A stretch of DNA of 64,000 nucleotides, taken from IMG/VR virus record IMGVR_UViG_3300010885_015027, positions 12,733 through 76,732 of that record; one strand, written 5' to 3'. A program made the position numbers and the translations under genes. Shown in pieces: positions 12,592 through 54,986 of this stretch. Origin of the DNA: a virus. The number at the start of each line of letters is the position of its first letter. Position 1 is the stretch's first letter. The notes under the pieces were generated by a model. That model had not been told where the DNA came from. It was given only the letters and a program-made list of their open reading frames with translations, and did no database searches.

Positions 12592-13038
12592 ATGATGACA
12601 ATCAGACGAATTAACTTAGATAATTTAGACGCAACACTTCCACCACCCCTCTTTTCTTATAATGATGTAACTTCCTTCTGGACTCAGGAAGCCAAATTAA
12701 ATGGTTCATTTCCACCATATAATCTTTCAAAGAATTCAGATTCAACAGCCTTCAATCTTAAATTAGCGATTGCCGGATTCGGTCCAGAAGACATTTCTGT
12801 ATCCGTTGAAGATAATCATCTAATTATCAAAGGGGATGCTGAGACTCTGACTCTTGATACAGGCAATACTTATGTTCATAAGGGAATTGCTGAGAGATCG
12901 TTTACAAGATCTTTCACATTAGGGGATTATGTTGAGGTGAAAGATGTATCTTATAAAAATGGTATTCTAGATGTCTATATGGAACTAGTCTTACCAGAAC
13001 ATAAGAAACCGAAACAGTTTCAAATTACAAATAAGTAA
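12592..13038 (+). CDS. hsp20: small heat-shock protein Hsp20
   Basis: FPPYN, AIAGF, HKGIAERSFTRSF, NGIL, PEHKKP. Confidence 0.93.
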   Translation: MMTIRRINLDNLDATLPPPLFSYNDVTSFWTQEAKLNGSFPPYNLSKNSDSTAFNLKLAIAGFGPEDISVSVEDNHLIIKGDAETLTLDTGNTYVHKGIAERSFTRSFTLGDYVEVKDVSYKNGILDVYMELVLPEHKKPKQFQITNK

Positions 13039-24451: not shown

Positions 24452-24482
24452 TCTTGCTTGATTAAACGAAAATGGAGTTATT

Positions 24483-24734
24483 ATGTCTAATCTTAGTATC
24501 CCATACAGAATAATTAGATGGGCGATTTTTCGCCTGGAAATTTTATTACATCACACACCAGAAGATCGTGCTCTTGTAGAAGTTAGGGCAAATATCCAAG
24601 ACAGAAAAGGGTGTGTCGACACACACCGTGCTGTAGTGAGTAATCTATTCGGAGAGTATTCTCAAGAACTGAGAGATATTAATACACTCATACGATTTCA
24701 AGAGTTTAAGAACAAGAGAAAAGATGGCCTGTAA
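24483..24734 (+). CDS. hypothetical protein
   Basis: GGAG SD. Confidence 0.55.
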   Translation: MSNLSIPYRIIRWAIFRLEILLHHTPEDRALVEVRANIQDRKGCVDTHRAVVSNLFGEYSQELRDINTLIRFQEFKNKRKDGL

Positions 24735-24742
24735 CAAAGATC

Positions 24743-25180
24743 ATGATTACAACCGACCAGGGAATCAACAATCTAGAAATTCTGATGGATTTCATCCAAC
24801 AAACTCTGTCCACAGAAATAAATTTTTTCCCATTCGGTGAGGATAATAACGAATTTCCTGTAGACGCTTGTGTGTTTCTGTGTGAAGGTTCACATGTTAT
24901 TGACATTTATGTTGATGATATATCCTCTAATCTTGAGGCTATAATATCTTGTCTAATACATGAGATGGGTCATATTCTGTGTTATGAACAAGTTGGAAAT
25001 AATCACACTGAACAGGACGCTTGGGACGCCGCAGTACTGGGTCTTCCGAAAGAATTAATCCCAGAAACATTCGAAGGAATTAAGGAATATTCTCTTTCAG
25101 AATATGATGAAATAGAAGAGGATAGTAATCGACATCCCAATTTATTCAATATTTTATATAATTTCCTGAATTATAAATAA
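24743..25180 (+). CDS. HEXXH zinc metallopeptidase-like protein (paralog of 11157-11555)
   Basis: LIHEMGH...HTEQDAW. Confidence 0.65.
   Translation: MITTDQGINNLEILMDFIQQTLSTEINFFPFGEDNNEFPVDACVFLCEGSHVIDIYVDDISSNLEAIISCLIHEMGHILCYEQVGNNHTEQDAWDAAVLGLPKELIPETFEGIKEYSLSEYDEIEEDSNRHPNLFNILYNFLNYK
25172..25179 (+). promoter_or_regulatory. T4-type late promoter upstream of the tmRNA
   Basis: TATAAATA. Confidence 0.7.
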
Positions 25181-25184
25181 TATT

Positions 25185-25450
25185 TGTTGAGTGATGATCT
25201 AGACTGAAAGCTTCTTGGACGGGAGTTCGACTCTCCCCTCATCCACCAAAAGTACATTCGATACGAGAGTGTATTTTTGATGGGTGAGCAATTGGTTTCG
25301 ACAGGATGAACTAGGAACAGGGAATTCAACCAGTAGACGACTACTGTAACAAGCGTAAACTATAACTGTCAATACAAATGTAATGGCAATGAGTGCCGCA
25401 GCTTAGGCTGTAACACTCGGGGGAATTATCCCTTGCAACAGAAAATAATT
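25185..25450 (+). ncRNA. ssrA: circularly permuted (two-piece) tmRNA; tag reading frame 25368-25406
   Basis: T-arm GGGAG-TTCGACT-CTCCC plus CTCATCC-A-CCA (25221-25248) lies before the 5' strand GGGTGAG...TTCGAC (from 25282); 7-bp acceptor stem with G3:U70; pk1; tag VNTNVMAMSAAA-TAG. Confidence 0.92.
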
Positions 25451-25452
25451 GA

Positions 25453-25482
25453 AAAATGGAGGGACCCAAATCCCTCCATTTT
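25453..25482 (+). terminator. terminator after tmRNA
   Basis: AAAATGGAGGGA...TCCCTCCATTTT. Confidence 0.8.
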
Positions 25483-25565
25483 CACATTTGAAATACAAGA
25501 CTGATTATAGTAGCAATTTAAAGCTAAATATATGTGTTCTTATGTAATTTAAAGAGACGTGAACC

Positions 25566-26678
25566 ATGAAACCCACCCCACTAATATTAATCGCACATAA
25601 AGATTCAAAAGTACACCACCCAAATGCTTGTCATATTGGTTTAGGTGTAACAGCCAATAACACAGCCAATTTCTTAAACAAATATAACATTCCAGCGATA
25701 GCAGTATCTGTAATTGATGGATATGATCTTAGGGATGGATTGATAGATAATAGATGGGGAAACGTGACACATGTTGTTATGTGTGCGCCATTTTTTGATA
25801 CACAATTCTTACATAATTTATGTTTAAAATTTCCAGATATAAGATTTACAATAACATATCACTCTAATGCTGGATTTCTTGGTGTTGATCAATGGGCAAT
25901 GGGTGTTATCGGGGAACAGATAACAGAACAATCATTATGCTCAAATTTTAATGTTTCCGTTAACAGTAAGAAATTCGCTAATGTCTTGAATAAGATATAC
26001 GACACTCAACCTATAAATGTATTGCCCAATTTGTATACATTAAATTCAAATACCATTTATCCTGTTAAGAAGAAGTGGACGAATAGAAAGATTCTTAAGA
26101 TTGGTACTTTTTGTGCAATCAGATCTCTTAAAAATATTCCAACAGCAGCATTTGCGGCCGCAATATTATGTAAGAAATATGGAATTACAGTAGAATTTTG
26201 TATTATGAAAGGAAGAGAAGAAGACATATTAGCAGAAAAGATTGTCAACGGAATAGAGAGATTATTTTCTCATATTCCTAATCTAAGATTGGTACAATAC
26301 GGGTGGCGTGAATGGAATGCATTTAGGGATGAAGTTGTGTCTGAGATGGATATTCTAATTCAGACTTCTTTCACAGAAAGTTTTAATATTGTGACAGCTG
26401 ATGGTATTTATTGTGGTATTCCTTCTGTTGTTGGTGAAGCTATTGATTGGATTCCAAATTATTGGAAAGCAAATGTTGATGATGCAGCTGATGTTGCGAG
26501 AGTAGCAGAAAAATTAATGTTTACTGATTCTACATCAGACGACGGGTATGCGAAATTAGTCGATCATAATAATGAAGCATTAGAATTATGGAAGGCTTGG
26601 ATTACACCTCCTCACCCAGAAAAGAAGAATTGTTATATTAAGAAATTCTTTGGAAAGCTTAAAAATATATTTTCATGA
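25566..26678 (+). CDS. GT-B (GT4-like) glycosyltransferase
   Basis: RSLKN and MDILIQTSFTESFNIVTADG...GIPSV signature. Confidence 0.72.
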   Translation: MKPTPLILIAHKDSKVHHPNACHIGLGVTANNTANFLNKYNIPAIAVSVIDGYDLRDGLIDNRWGNVTHVVMCAPFFDTQFLHNLCLKFPDIRFTITYHSNAGFLGVDQWAMGVIGEQITEQSLCSNFNVSVNSKKFANVLNKIYDTQPINVLPNLYTLNSNTIYPVKKKWTNRKILKIGTFCAIRSLKNIPTAAFAAAILCKKYGITVEFCIMKGREEDILAEKIVNGIERLFSHIPNLRLVQYGWREWNAFRDEVVSEMDILIQTSFTESFNIVTADGIYCGIPSVVGEAIDWIPNYWKANVDDAADVARVAEKLMFTDSTSDDGYAKLVDHNNEALELWKAWITPPHPEKKNCYIKKFFGKLKNIFS

Positions 26679-26765
26679 ATCATCCATTGTCCAGAAGACT
26701 TACTAAGAATTATATACAGAAGTTCTGATTAGAAGAGCATTACTCTTAGCAACAGAAAATAATTG

Positions 26766-26789
26766 ATGGTGTCGCTTCGGTGACACCAT
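26766..26789 (+). terminator. hairpin with TTCG loop
   Basis: ATGGTGTCGC-TTCG-GTGACACCAT. Confidence 0.55.
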
Positions 26790-26831
26790 TCACGCATTAA
26801 TACAATAAATAAATTTAGGAGGAATAATTAC

Positions 26832-27851
26832 ATGATCCTAAATTCTAAAAATCTTTCCGGAAAAGCAAAAGAACTGCAAGATCGCTTGAATTCTGTTGTT
26901 GTAGGTCAAGAAGAAGCTGTTAAAGAATTAGCAATTACTACACAAAAATTCTTCCATGGTCTATCTGATCCTAAGAAACCAATTACATCATTATTCTTTG
27001 CGGGAAAAACTGGTTGCGGTAAAACCAAAGTTGCAGAAGAATTGGCAAAGTTTTTTGGTATAACTAAATTCATGAAAGTTAATTGTGGTGAATTCCAACA
27101 ATCTCATGAGATCGCCAAATTGATAGGTTCTCCTCCTGGTTATATTGGACACTCAGAAACTAAAGCTTTCTTCAATAAGAAAGATGTAGAAGGACATTCA
27201 CCAAATATAATATTATTTGATGAAGTCGAAAAGGCTACAGATTCTCTGTTCCATTTACTCCTCTCTATCTTAGATAAGGGTGAGATTAAATTAGGAAATA
27301 ATGATGTAGTAGATTTTAAAAATTGTTTTATTATCTTCACTTCAAATATTGGTGTAGAAGAAACAAAAAATAGATCTAAGAGAATAGGTTTCTTAGATAA
27401 TAAGATTGGTGAAGGTGAAGAAGACCTCCTATTGAATAAATCTATGAAATCTAAATTTCGTCCAGAATTTATCAATAGAATCGATTCTACCATACGTTTT
27501 AACACTCTATCAAAAGATCATATGAAGAAAATTCTTGAGTTAGAATTATCCAAAATTCAATATAGAATTATGTCTTCTAAAATTATTAAAAAGAAGATCT
27601 ATTTTGTTATGAATGCAGAAACGAAAAACTGGATAATCGATGAAGGATTTTCAGAAGAATTTGGTGCTAGAAATCTTAAGAGGATTATATCTAAGGCAAT
27701 AGAAATACCTCTCTCATGTGTCCTCGGAGACGGACAACTTGAATCGGGAGATGTTATTGAGATTAAAAAAATAGAAGGTGAAGAAGACCTTGTCTTCGAG
27801 AAAGCTCTGTTCAAGCGTTCCAATAATAAAATTCTATCATTAGAATACTAA
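26832..27851 (+). CDS. stand-alone ClpA/B/C-type AAA+ ATPase (NBD2 only) with IGF loop
   Basis: VVGQEEA, GKTGCGKT, GSPPGYIG pore loop, LFDEVEK, RIGFL, FRPEFINRID, FGARNLKR. Confidence 0.88.
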   Translation: MILNSKNLSGKAKELQDRLNSVVVGQEEAVKELAITTQKFFHGLSDPKKPITSLFFAGKTGCGKTKVAEELAKFFGITKFMKVNCGEFQQSHEIAKLIGSPPGYIGHSETKAFFNKKDVEGHSPNIILFDEVEKATDSLFHLLLSILDKGEIKLGNNDVVDFKNCFIIFTSNIGVEETKNRSKRIGFLDNKIGEGEEDLLLNKSMKSKFRPEFINRIDSTIRFNTLSKDHMKKILELELSKIQYRIMSSKIIKKKIYFVMNAETKNWIIDEGFSEEFGARNLKRIISKAIEIPLSCVLGDGQLESGDVIEIKKIEGEEDLVFEKALFKRSNNKILSLEY

Positions 27852-48292: not shown

Positions 48293-48883
48293 ATGAGGAT
48301 ACTAATGGAAAATAATAATTCACAATCAGACATTCCTAAGATTTATATTTCATTTGAAGGTGCGGGATATTATTTACTTTCGGGTGAGATAGAAAACGAA
48401 AATACTTCTGATGCAATTAAATATATTGTAGAAAGAAATTTCAATTTTCGTGTTCTTAAAGAATCTACTGAAATTCGAATGATGATTAATTCGATTGGCG
48501 GAGATCTGTGCTCCGGATTCGCTTTAATTGATGTGATGAAATCTTCTGAAATCGATATAGCAACTTTCGGTCTTGGAACAATTGCTTCTGCGGGACTCAC
48601 GATTTTTATGGCAGGTAAGAAAGGAAAGAGATTTGTTACTCAGAATACATCTATTCTCTCACACCAATTCTCCTGGGGATCGTATGGAAAAGAACATGAA
48701 TTGTATGCAAGAAATAAGGAGTTTGAATTAACTACTAGCAGAATGCTTAATCATTATAAGAAGTGCACAGGAATGAATGAAAAGAAGATCAGAGAAATTC
48801 TGCTTCCCCCGCATGATGTTTGGTTATCCGCAGAAGAAGCAGTAAAGTATGGAATTGCCGATAAGATCGTAGATTGGTACTAA
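48293..48883 (+). CDS. clpP: ClpP-family serine protease
   Basis: INSIGG, IASAG (Ser), SHQ (His), HDVWLSAEEAVKYGIAD (Asp); TATAAATA at 48255-48262. Confidence 0.9.
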   Translation: MRILMENNNSQSDIPKIYISFEGAGYYLLSGEIENENTSDAIKYIVERNFNFRVLKESTEIRMMINSIGGDLCSGFALIDVMKSSEIDIATFGLGTIASAGLTIFMAGKKGKRFVTQNTSILSHQFSWGSYGKEHELYARNKEFELTTSRMLNHYKKCTGMNEKKIREILLPPHDVWLSAEEAVKYGIADKIVDWY

Positions 48884-54344: not shown

Positions 54345-54986
54345 TTACAATCTCGAAAGAAAGTCTGTAAAAATGGCAATCTTATCTTCTTGTAATCTTT
54401 TTGATGTGGTTAGCTTCTTCTTATATGAATCAATAGTTACTTCTTTTACTGCACCATTATTCCAGACCCATTCTTTTGATTCCATAACAGCTTCAACGAA
54501 AGCTTCATGAGCAGAAGGATCCGCAACGATATCTGCCGCAGTCATAATTTTGTAATCTGGTTGAACGACTGAATATTGACCATCTTGTTTTAAAGAACCT
54601 AATCCTCTTGTTGATACACCTAACATACATCCACCGTCGATAAATGCTTTAACAATCTTCCCATTAGGAGTATCTAAAATCTTGGCTCTACCTACATATG
54701 TTGTACCTTTTTGGTCTAATGATGTAATCAGATGCGAAACTCTATCTAAATTAATTGTAGGATTTTCTGGATGACCTAATTCGCCAAAAGCTCTGTTCTT
54801 ATTAACATATTCGGTAACATATCTGTCTACTTCTGGTTGCATATATTCCATCATATATTTTCTCGAATTTCTATTTGGTTCTTCACACTGAATAAAAATT
54901 CCTTCGATGAAATAATTGTTTGGTCTACCTTCGACACATTCTGAAACAATTTCGATAAGTTCAGTTACTTCTGTTAATAGTTTCAT
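54345..54986 (-). CDS. 21: prohead protease gp21
   Basis: NRN.R.Y, GELGHP, RVSH, GVSTRGLGS, DIVADPS. Confidence 0.95.
   Translation of the reverse strand: MKLLTEVTELIEIVSECVEGRPNNYFIEGIFIQCEEPNRNSRKYMMEYMQPEVDRYVTEYVNKNRAFGELGHPENPTINLDRVSHLITSLDQKGTTYVGRAKILDTPNGKIVKAFIDGGCMLGVSTRGLGSLKQDGQYSVVQPDYKIMTAADIVADPSAHEAFVEAVMESKEWVWNNGAVKEVTIDSYKKKLTTSKRLQEDKIAIFTDFLSRL

Follow-up and report, generated by a model that had tools for sequence, protein, structure and literature searches.

The DNA examined here, a stretch of 64,000 nucleotides (nt) hereafter called the window (positions 12,733 to 76,732 of the virus record IMGVR_UViG_3300010885_015027 in IMG/VR), very probably carries a functional gene for a two-piece transfer-messenger RNA (tmRNA), a gene of an uncultured T4-like myophage that is widespread in lakes. 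The kind is already known, as two-piece tmRNAs of aquatic T4-like phages have been published (PMC9004378). What is new here is a group of phage tmRNAs with acid-free tags and variable resume codons, their apparent control by a late-promoter motif, and a conserved partner gene for a predicted ClpP-docking ATPase. The window is part of a 76.7-kb record with an estimated completeness of 42%, and its G+C content is 31-40%. T4-like genes flank the tmRNA, namely those for a gp41-type helicase, the RNA ligase RnlA, the gp46/gp47 nuclease, and the late sigma factor gp55, and the assignment of the window to a T4-like phage is supported by its sequence. The DNA of this phage is present in at least 14 freshwater or lake DNA metagenome runs from 14 studies, which is why we consider the phage widespread in lakes, and a tmRNA copy with 99.7% identity lies on another metagenome contig (L279). 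A DNA search of a phage isolate collection with the tmRNA returned no similar record.

The gene was recognized by two kinds of program. ARAGORN called a permuted tmRNA at 25156-25497 with the tag VNTNVMAMSAAA, the sole RNA gene that it called in the window. Two Rfam covariance models matched over their entire lengths and above their cut-offs: RF01850 (beta_tmRNA) with 102.5 bits (cut-off 84; model positions 1-331 of 331) and RF04321 (tmRNA_permuted) with 94.1 bits (cut-off 47; model positions 1-213 of 213). Membership in RF04321 is further borne out by the permuted gene order, a tRNA-Ala-like identity, and the joint presence of pk1, a tag frame, and a stop hairpin. The initial annotation, made from the sequence alone, had described a circularly permuted two-piece tmRNA encoded by a phage and had proposed ARAGORN and the permuted covariance models among the checks. 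Both are positive, the gene looks complete, and every anatomical detail that it listed (acceptor piece first, spacer, GGGTGAG at 25282, 7/7 acceptor stem with G3:U70, pk1, GTC, and stop hairpin) lies where it had been placed.

The features of the locus are collected in Table 1. The gene order is that of a permuted tmRNA, with the encoded CCA ending at 25248, a spacer at 25249-25281, G1 at 25282, and then the coding part. The tRNA-like identity set is complete, comprising G3:U70, A73, the encoded CCA, a canonical T-loop, and the UGGUUUCGAC motif. The spacer folds together with the flanking acceptor strands at -27.2 kcal/mol (z = -8.55; 0 of 200 shuffled sequences folded as well), and by analogy this 33-nt segment is presumed to be removed during maturation. 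The 3' region is likewise more stable than shuffled sequence (z = -4.75). The resume codon GUC begins 11 nt past pk1, a distance like that in E. coli tmRNA, and the tag ends in AAA.

Table 1. Features of the tmRNA locus and of related genes in the window (window coordinates).
Feature	Position	Strand	Basis or remark
T4-type late promoter motif TATAAATA	25172..25179	+	sequence; 6 nt before modelled RNA 5' end
Acceptor piece (P2 5' strands, T-arm, acceptor 3' strand, discriminator A, encoded CCA)	25186..25248	+	Rfam alignments, ARAGORN, group covariation
T-arm GGGAG / UUCGACU / CUCCC	25221-25237	+	sequence
Acceptor 3' strand CUCAUCC; discriminator A; CCA	25238-25244; 25245; 25246-25248	+	sequence
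Intervening segment, 33 nt	25249..25281	+	lengthens acceptor stem into long hairpin; fold; match to beta_tmRNA spacer consensus
Coding piece	25282..25484	+	sequence, ARAGORN, Rfam, folding; compensatory changes in pk1 and 3' pseudoknot
Acceptor 5' strand GGGUGAG	25282-25288	+	pairs 7/7 including G3:U70 (G25284:U25242)
UGGUUUCGAC motif	25293-25302	+	within coding piece, after acceptor 5' strand
pk1 stem 1, CAGUAG with CUACUG	25331-25336 with 25341-25346	+	sequence
pk1 stem 2, ACG with CGU	25337-25339 with 25354-25356	+	sequence
Predicted tag reading frame, peptide VNTNVMAMSAAA	25368..25406	+	ARAGORN; resume codon GUC 25368-25370, stop UAG 25404-25406
Stop-codon hairpin GCAGC / GCUGU	25398-25402 / 25407-25411	+	UAG in loop; sequence, folding
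3' pseudoknot	25419-25450	+	loop GCAACAGAA
Terminator-like hairpin, then UUUU	25457-25478, ending 25482	+	strong fold prediction; part of Rfam model
370-amino-acid open reading frame	25566..26678	+	between tmRNA and Clp ATPase; weak GT4-like glycosyltransferase match, Pfam PF20706 16.8 bits, below cut-off
Second copy of tmRNA 3' pseudoknot with own terminator hairpin	26733..26790	+	exact 18-nt repeat, compensated stem
Late-promoter-like motif AATAAATA	26804..26811	+	upstream of Clp ATPase gene
Predicted single-ring Clp/Hsp100 ATPase, 339 amino acids, D2 module only	26832..27851	+	~1.3 kb downstream of tmRNA
TATAAATA motif; ClpP homologue, 196 amino acids	48255-48262; 48293-48883	+	PF00574 114 bits, cut-off 20.2
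gp21-type prohead protease	~54474-54923	-	PF03420 110.8 bits

That the RNA is under selection to fold as a tmRNA is indicated by its relatives. Pattern scans and neighbour-protein searches yielded the loci L270, L282-L287, L293, L295, L296, L300, and L301, and a further relative in IMG/VR, L280, was reached via a contig of a lake RNA library. Across 11 related phage tmRNAs the acceptor stem is paired 7/7, with G3:U70 and the discriminator A kept in all, and occurs in seven different sequences. When the 11 relatives were aligned with their spacers removed, compensatory (double) changes were seen at 4 of 5 pairs in P2a, 2 of 3 in P2d, 4 of 5 in the T-stem, 3 of 6 in pk1 stem 1, 2 of 3 in pk1 stem 2, and 5 of 6 in stem 2 of the 3' pseudoknot. 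For the acceptor helix a direct search is the valid test, since its 5' strand is misplaced in the MAFFT alignment. Helices maintained in this way argue for a tmRNA fold far beyond chance.

Wider searches set the background for these matches. An acceptor-specific pattern gave 120 matches in genome contigs, all of them due to chance and none a tmRNA by ARAGORN or BLAST, and 8 chance matches in viral contigs; a back-translated tag pattern gave no match in the viral contigs, and the candidate L269 was rejected as a chance coding match. A pattern scan of IMG/VR gave another 39 viral loci whose permuted tmRNAs were confirmed by ARAGORN; 16 of these were typed by Rfam (12 beta-type, 2 alpha-type). 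Within the group, ARAGORN misses L282-L287, L295, L296, and L301, all of which Rfam detects, and it does so because their T-loops are unusual.

Both the T-loop and the spacer vary within the group. Seven of the 11 related tmRNAs have non-canonical T-loops (e.g., AGGCAGAG, GGCGGAA, or UGCAAUG) instead of UUCGANU; examples lie at L282:5700-5725, L284:5690-5715, L295:2710-2735, L296:2730-2755, and L301:2205-2235 (compare the T-arm of the window). The RNAs with such loops also have the GG of the UGGUUUCGAC motif changed to AG or GA, and this co-change looks like tertiary covariation of the kind that links G18/G19 of tRNA with positions 55/56. The spacers of the relatives are between 7 and 99 nt long. 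The 99-nt spacers of L283 (5660-5765) and L300 (2175-2280) are identical at 97 of 102 positions, despite the fact that the neighbouring ATPases of these phages are only 79% and 40% identical to that of the window, which looks like the transfer of a mobile insert of about 75 nt, located within the spacer hairpin, from one divergent phage to another. The acceptor piece of L295 (2725-2745) ends in CACCUCC-A followed by AAU and has no encoded CCA, which the remaining group members encode.

The predicted tags were read in the register AUAAAY/GNN, which is common to the relatives and to bacterial beta-type tmRNAs. The tag frame is retained in 11 of 11 group members and ends in small hydrophobic residues. 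With GUC as the resume codon, the window encodes VNTNVMAMSAAA and L293 VTAKAKTMSAAA; GCA precedes ANTNVLVMSAAA in L284-6 and ANTNVLAMSAAA in L300; GGC is found in L282/3/7 (GNAKAMSMSA) and L270 (GKAKVMSMAVAA); GCC is found in L295 (ANNNVAYAYAA), L296 (AKSNKMKSFAASA), and L301 (ADTKVFAMAA); and L280 begins with GAC (DNSNVFALLAA). On these predicted peptides, the 11 phage tmRNAs are a new group, characterized by nearly acid-free tags that often end in MSAAA and by variable resume codons (GCN, GUC, GGC, and GAC).

The initial annotation had called the tag of the window non-canonical. This holds insofar as a Val resume codon is rare, being found only in the window gene among 40 well-predicted viral permuted tmRNAs. 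As a description of the tag it is overstated, because a bacterial precedent exists and the same tag body follows GCA in the nearest sisters, with L284 reading its near-identical ANTNVLVMSAAA from that normal codon. Comparison of the tags within the group indicates that the Val codon is one state of a variable first position. The precedent is Helicobacter pylori SsrA, which uses GUA (Val) as its resume codon; in E. coli, GUA or GUC resume codons also function, though less well (PMC2862035). Like the window gene, H. pylori SsrA is thus a naturally occurring tmRNA that templates Val first. It differs in being a one-piece, bacterial RNA of an unrelated lineage, and the likeness is limited to the resume codon.

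The late promoter and the terminator that the initial annotation saw on either side of the gene are both present (Table 1); a simple terminator scan did not call the plus-strand site, whose tail has only four U. By itself the promoter motif means little, with 15 occurrences of TATAAATA in the window versus 8.2 expected. Its position is what is conserved: all 12 related loci have TATAAATA, AATAAATA, or at least TAAATA at 4-8 nt ahead of the modelled start of the tmRNA, where the other upstream DNA differs. In the Rfam alignment, the late motif stands where bacterial genes have their -10 box, and the phage encodes the gp55 late sigma factor. The late expression proposed for this RNA is thereby made plausible. 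Lake RNA libraries were examined as assembled contigs, which show presence and not ends, strand, or level. A 175-nt contig from run X18 covers 25199-25373 without any difference and spans the spacer, an L280-type relative is found as a contig in run X16, and contigs from each of the four lake RNA runs cover the flanking genes.

How the window gene relates to known tmRNAs bears on its origin. Buchholz et al. (2022) reported a two-piece tmRNA in the OM43 myophage Melnitz, as well as in Pelagibacter phage Mosig and related contigs, and 53 two-piece tmRNAs have been counted in 18,146 phage genomes, 50 of them aquatic (PMC9004378). A tmRNA database paper of 2025 counts 79 phage tmRNAs and introduced RF04321 (PMC11915505). 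The Melnitz and Mosig genes share with the window gene the permuted organization, the T4-like aquatic myophage background, and detection by ARAGORN, and the roles proposed for the Melnitz RNA, upkeep of the translation machinery and protein tagging, are the same as those considered here. However, the Melnitz tmRNA is reported to lie behind an early promoter, whereas the window gene has a late-type motif, and it has a glutamine riboswitch in its 3' part, whereas Rfam finds none in the window even at E <= 5. ClpP has 0 mentions in the Melnitz paper (PMC9004378), whereas the window phage has a ClpP gene (see below).

Among bacterial tmRNAs, the best match is to the betaproteobacterial type. The window gene aligns with RF01850 in its spacer consensus, the UGGUUUCGAC motif, pk1, the stop-codon hairpin, the 3' pseudoknot, and the terminator, and its spacer matches the betaproteobacterial consensus AAG..CAUUC..GAGAGUG..UUU.GAU. 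Sharkady and Williams (2004) is reportedly the source for the betaproteobacterial two-piece tmRNA. The 3' pseudoknot loop GCAACAGAA / GGAAACAGAA is common to the window gene, bacterial beta-type tmRNAs (Burkholderiales sample), and other phage two-piece tmRNAs. With the alpha model of Rfam the window gene scores 36.7 bits and with the cyano model 34.1 bits, in each case below the cut-off. BLAST against 401 genomes of the order Burkholderiales found two-piece tmRNAs, the best with 75% identity over 104 nt (E = 2e-13), and against 301 genomes of the order Pelagibacterales it gave marginal matches of 19-41 nt only. Nonetheless, bacterial beta-type members have ANDExxALAA-type tags read from GCN and a sigma-70 -10 box, whereas the window gene has VNTNVMAMSAAA read from GUC and the late-promoter motif. 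Furthermore, Rfam types the syntenic relatives in two ways, as beta (window, L282, L293, and L300) or alpha (L283-L287, L296, and L301), and a quick maximum-likelihood tree places the group nearer the alpha-typed phage tmRNAs and apart from the bacterial beta set, with weak support (59%). Because the syntenic sisters score as alpha-type and because of this placement, membership of the window gene in the beta subtype is not firm.

The mixed affinities could be taken to mean that a one-piece tmRNA was permuted anew within phages, an origin that the initial annotation had thought possible: the group fits neither bacterial subtype neatly, its syntenic relatives are split between beta and alpha, and the tree, weakly supported as it is, separates it from the bacterial beta-type set. 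We nevertheless consider such an independent event highly improbable. The permuted models already available match the window gene along their whole length, the break point and the gene order are the same, and the spacer hairpin conforms to the beta consensus. Moreover, the 3' pseudoknot loop is held in common with bacterial and other phage two-piece tmRNAs, and the best bacterial BLAST matches are themselves two-piece tmRNAs. We give equally little credence to a host gene captured recently and now carried as a neutral or decaying passenger. tmRNA genes are common sites of integration and capture (PMC9004378), which could account for such an acquisition, but no close bacterial match was found in the Burkholderiales and Pelagibacterales genomes (75% identity at most), a phage late motif has replaced the promoter at the position of the bacterial -10 box, compensatory substitutions are seen, and the gene has been kept at the same locus even where the neighbouring proteins are only 34-50% identical.

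Downstream of the tmRNA, the window phage encodes a 339-amino-acid protein that consists of a single D2 module of the Clp/Hsp100 type. It matches Pfam AAA_2 and ClpB_D2-small and aligns with positions 446-733 of 734 of the NCBIfam ClpA model, and it contains the motifs GKTGCGKT and ILFDEVEKA (Walker A and B), a PPGYIGH pore loop, TSNIG, and GARNLKR. Its segment KRIGF aligns with the ClpP-docking RFAGF of the Staphylococcus aureus ClpC D2 domain, and among 13 homologues F187 of this loop is invariant and G186 nearly so. From these motifs and alignments, the protein is a predicted ClpP-docking unfoldase of the ClpA/ClpC D2 type. Its D2 and D2-small domains align with those of S. aureus ClpC (PDB 6em9) and E. 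coli ClpAP (6uqe) with E = 1e-56, and it has IGF at the AGF/IGL docking position of ClpA/ClpC. Unlike ClpA and ClpC, it would form a single ring, lacks the N-domain and D1, and is phage-encoded beside a tmRNA gene.

The association of the two genes recurs in the relatives. In 12 of 13 testable loci, the mini-Clp ATPase gene is the one immediately downstream of the tmRNA, the adjacency being found in L270, L282-L287, L293, L295, L296, L300, and L301; L294 was excluded from the count as its upstream DNA is too short. A protein-alignment search gave 80 viral loci, on all of which ARAGORN was run, and on 40 of which Rfam was run. In six IMG/VR relatives, whose ATPases are 74-79% identical, 40-90 nt separate the end of the permuted tmRNA from the start codon of the ATPase gene, and five further loci with ATPases of 40-44% identity have a same-strand tmRNA directly upstream; in L270, the ATPase gene begins only 18 nt after the tmRNA. 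The other 34 of the 40 Rfam-scanned loci have no tmRNA within 3 kb of the mini-Clp gene, and their matches to the ATPase are mostly poorer or begin beyond its first residues. As a control, the 39 other viral tmRNA loci gave no match to the mini-Clp ATPase, and among isolate phages there is no homologue above 38% identity. One group member, L280, is without such an ATPase within its 24-kb record, and it has the most host-like tag end (ALLAA). Of 10 related loci, all 10 also have a late motif ahead of the start codon of the ATPase gene. The region as a whole is syntenic, running from RnlA through tmRNA, ATPase, and gp46 to gp47, with gp46 34-79% identical, and common descent therefore contributes to the adjacency. 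The pairing of a tmRNA with a ClpP-docking single-ring unfoldase was not found described in the literature searched and is, to that extent, new here.

A possible proteolytic partner is encoded elsewhere in the window. When the ClpP homologue (Table 1) is aligned with solved ClpP structures, its segments IASAG, SHQ, and HDVW fall on the catalytic Ser, His, and Asp, and TATAAATA lies 30 nt upstream of its start. PHROG labels it a head maturation protease, a label we rejected in view of its neighbours, which are genes of nucleotide metabolism, and of the separate gp21-type prohead protease. By its sequence, the gene encodes a predicted ClpP serine protease distinct from the prohead protease. ClpP was also found in the L282 and L286 records and was not found in the L293, L295, and L301 fragments, which are 20-50% complete.

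The proteases that classically break down ssrA-tagged proteins are ClpAP and ClpXP. An extension of our explanation is that the phage runs a private tag-and-degrade pathway, in which the acid-free tag (...MSAAA and its relatives) would be a phage-specific degron read by the mini-Clp ATPase and fed into the phage ClpP. Such a pathway would act late and independently of host ClpXP and SspB, clearing truncated proteins and recycling their amino acids, and the first templated residue of the degron would vary freely. We regard the degron and its reader as a tentative proposal that is rather unlikely to be correct, and hold the late, host-independent action to be equally doubtful. In its favour, the tmRNA stays directly upstream of the ATPase gene in nearly all testable loci even though the ATPases range from 40 to 96% and gp46 from 34 to 79% identity. 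Mini-Clp matches are absent from the 39 viral tmRNA loci with ANDE..ALAA-type tags, and L280, from whose record the ATPase is absent, has the most host-like tag end. The ATPase has the IGF docking loop, the GYIG pore loop, and Walker A and B, a ClpP with an intact triad, separate from the gp21 protease, is encoded by the window phage, L282, and L286, and late-promoter motifs precede the tmRNA, ATPase, and ClpP genes alike. On the other hand, the linked cases all come from a single phage lineage, and the correlation may reflect common descent; moreover, a terminator stands between the tmRNA and the ATPase gene. ClpP was not found in the three incomplete fragments, mini-Clp proteins occur in many phages that have no tmRNA within 3 kb of the gene, recognition of the tag is conjectural, and host ClpXP or ClpAP could well accept a C-terminal AA.

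The explanation that we favour, a functional two-piece tmRNA, can be laid out as a sequence of steps. gp55 would direct transcription from TATAAATA, the motif and its conservation being observed, with a start at ~25185-25186 and an end at the hairpin and U-tract near 25482. By analogy with the Caulobacter type, host RNase P would cut before G25282, and the upstream piece would be trimmed to the CCA at 25248, with loss of the 33-nt spacer hairpin. The two pieces would then be held together by the 7-bp acceptor stem and the P2 helices, for which pairing and covariation are evident. Host alanyl-tRNA synthetase would charge the RNA via G3:U70, and host SmpB and EF-Tu would take it to ribosomes stalled on broken mRNAs, where translation would resume at GUC, add A-VNTNVMAMSAAA, and stop at UAG. 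The pay-off would be the recycling of ribosomes late in infection and the marking of truncated products for proteolysis, and the tagged products may pass to a phage-made protease.

Several observations weigh against this explanation. The RNA-library contig spans the spacer and hence represents either a precursor or carried-over DNA, and two of the four RNA runs (X15 and X17) have no contig on the tmRNA, which is no evidence of silence and no support either. In E. coli, Val resume codons of the GUA type were less effective than GCA (PMC2862035). The adjacency of tmRNA and ATPase sits in a generally syntenic region, from RnlA to gp46/gp47, and shared ancestry alone could explain it. Finally, no SmpB gene was found in the 42%-complete record or in five related fragments, so that function relies on host SmpB accepting the phage RNA. 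The need to compete for host SmpB would also suit a decoy, that is, a phage RNA that mainly displaces or inhibits the host tmRNA-SmpB system rather than tagging proteins. A precedent, cited in PMC11915505, is the tmRNA of mycobacteriophage DS6A, which has no coding sequence and reportedly inhibits the endogenous tmRNA. However, a pure decoy would have no use for the tag frame, resume context, pk1, and stop-codon hairpin that are kept across the 11 divergent relatives, and we judge this alternative to be improbable.

In the window, a 370-amino-acid open reading frame intervenes between the tmRNA and the ATPase gene. In L293, a homologue of this reading frame (59% identity) lies upstream of the tmRNA instead. 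The second copy of the tmRNA 3' pseudoknot includes an exact 18-nt repeat (26749-26766 = 25435-25452), and the sequence that follows it resembles the tmRNA-ATPase junction of L282 and L284. Together, the duplicated pseudoknot, the junction-like sequence, and the order in L293 indicate that the ancestral order was tmRNA-ATPase and that a local rearrangement took place in the window phage. The reading frame is, on this comparison, a putative rearranged or inserted gene outside the tmRNA-ATPase module. In the region 25566-26795, the GT4-like reading frame is bracketed by the two copies of the pseudoknot and terminator, and strain variants lack 26 nt at 26691, immediately ahead of the second of these copies.

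Two further observations were made on the surrounding DNA and on a distant homologue. Two genes upstream of the tmRNA, the 276 nt at 24456-24731 are swapped for 23 other letters in contigs of the lake RNA-library runs X15 and X17, and the 83-amino-acid open reading frame in this segment (24483-24734) is thus a presence/absence polymorphism. L311, a 300-kb IMG/VR contig with a distant mini-Clp homologue, carries a full-length bacterial RNase P RNA at 144-519 (RF00010, 255 bits) beside a tRNA gene. Either a jumbo phage encodes an RNase P RNA of its own here, or the record contains DNA of the host.

Given that ARAGORN misses most of the group, counts of phage tmRNAs that are based on ARAGORN only are too low. 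That phages encode tmRNAs is known, and the locus described here offers a testable handle on what these RNAs do for them. Its tag family has drifted from the host-type ANDE..ALAA degron. If tag and unfoldase are indeed matched, this would be the first virus to bring both the tagging and the degrading halves of trans-translation, and the two would constitute a compact orthogonal degron-protease pair.

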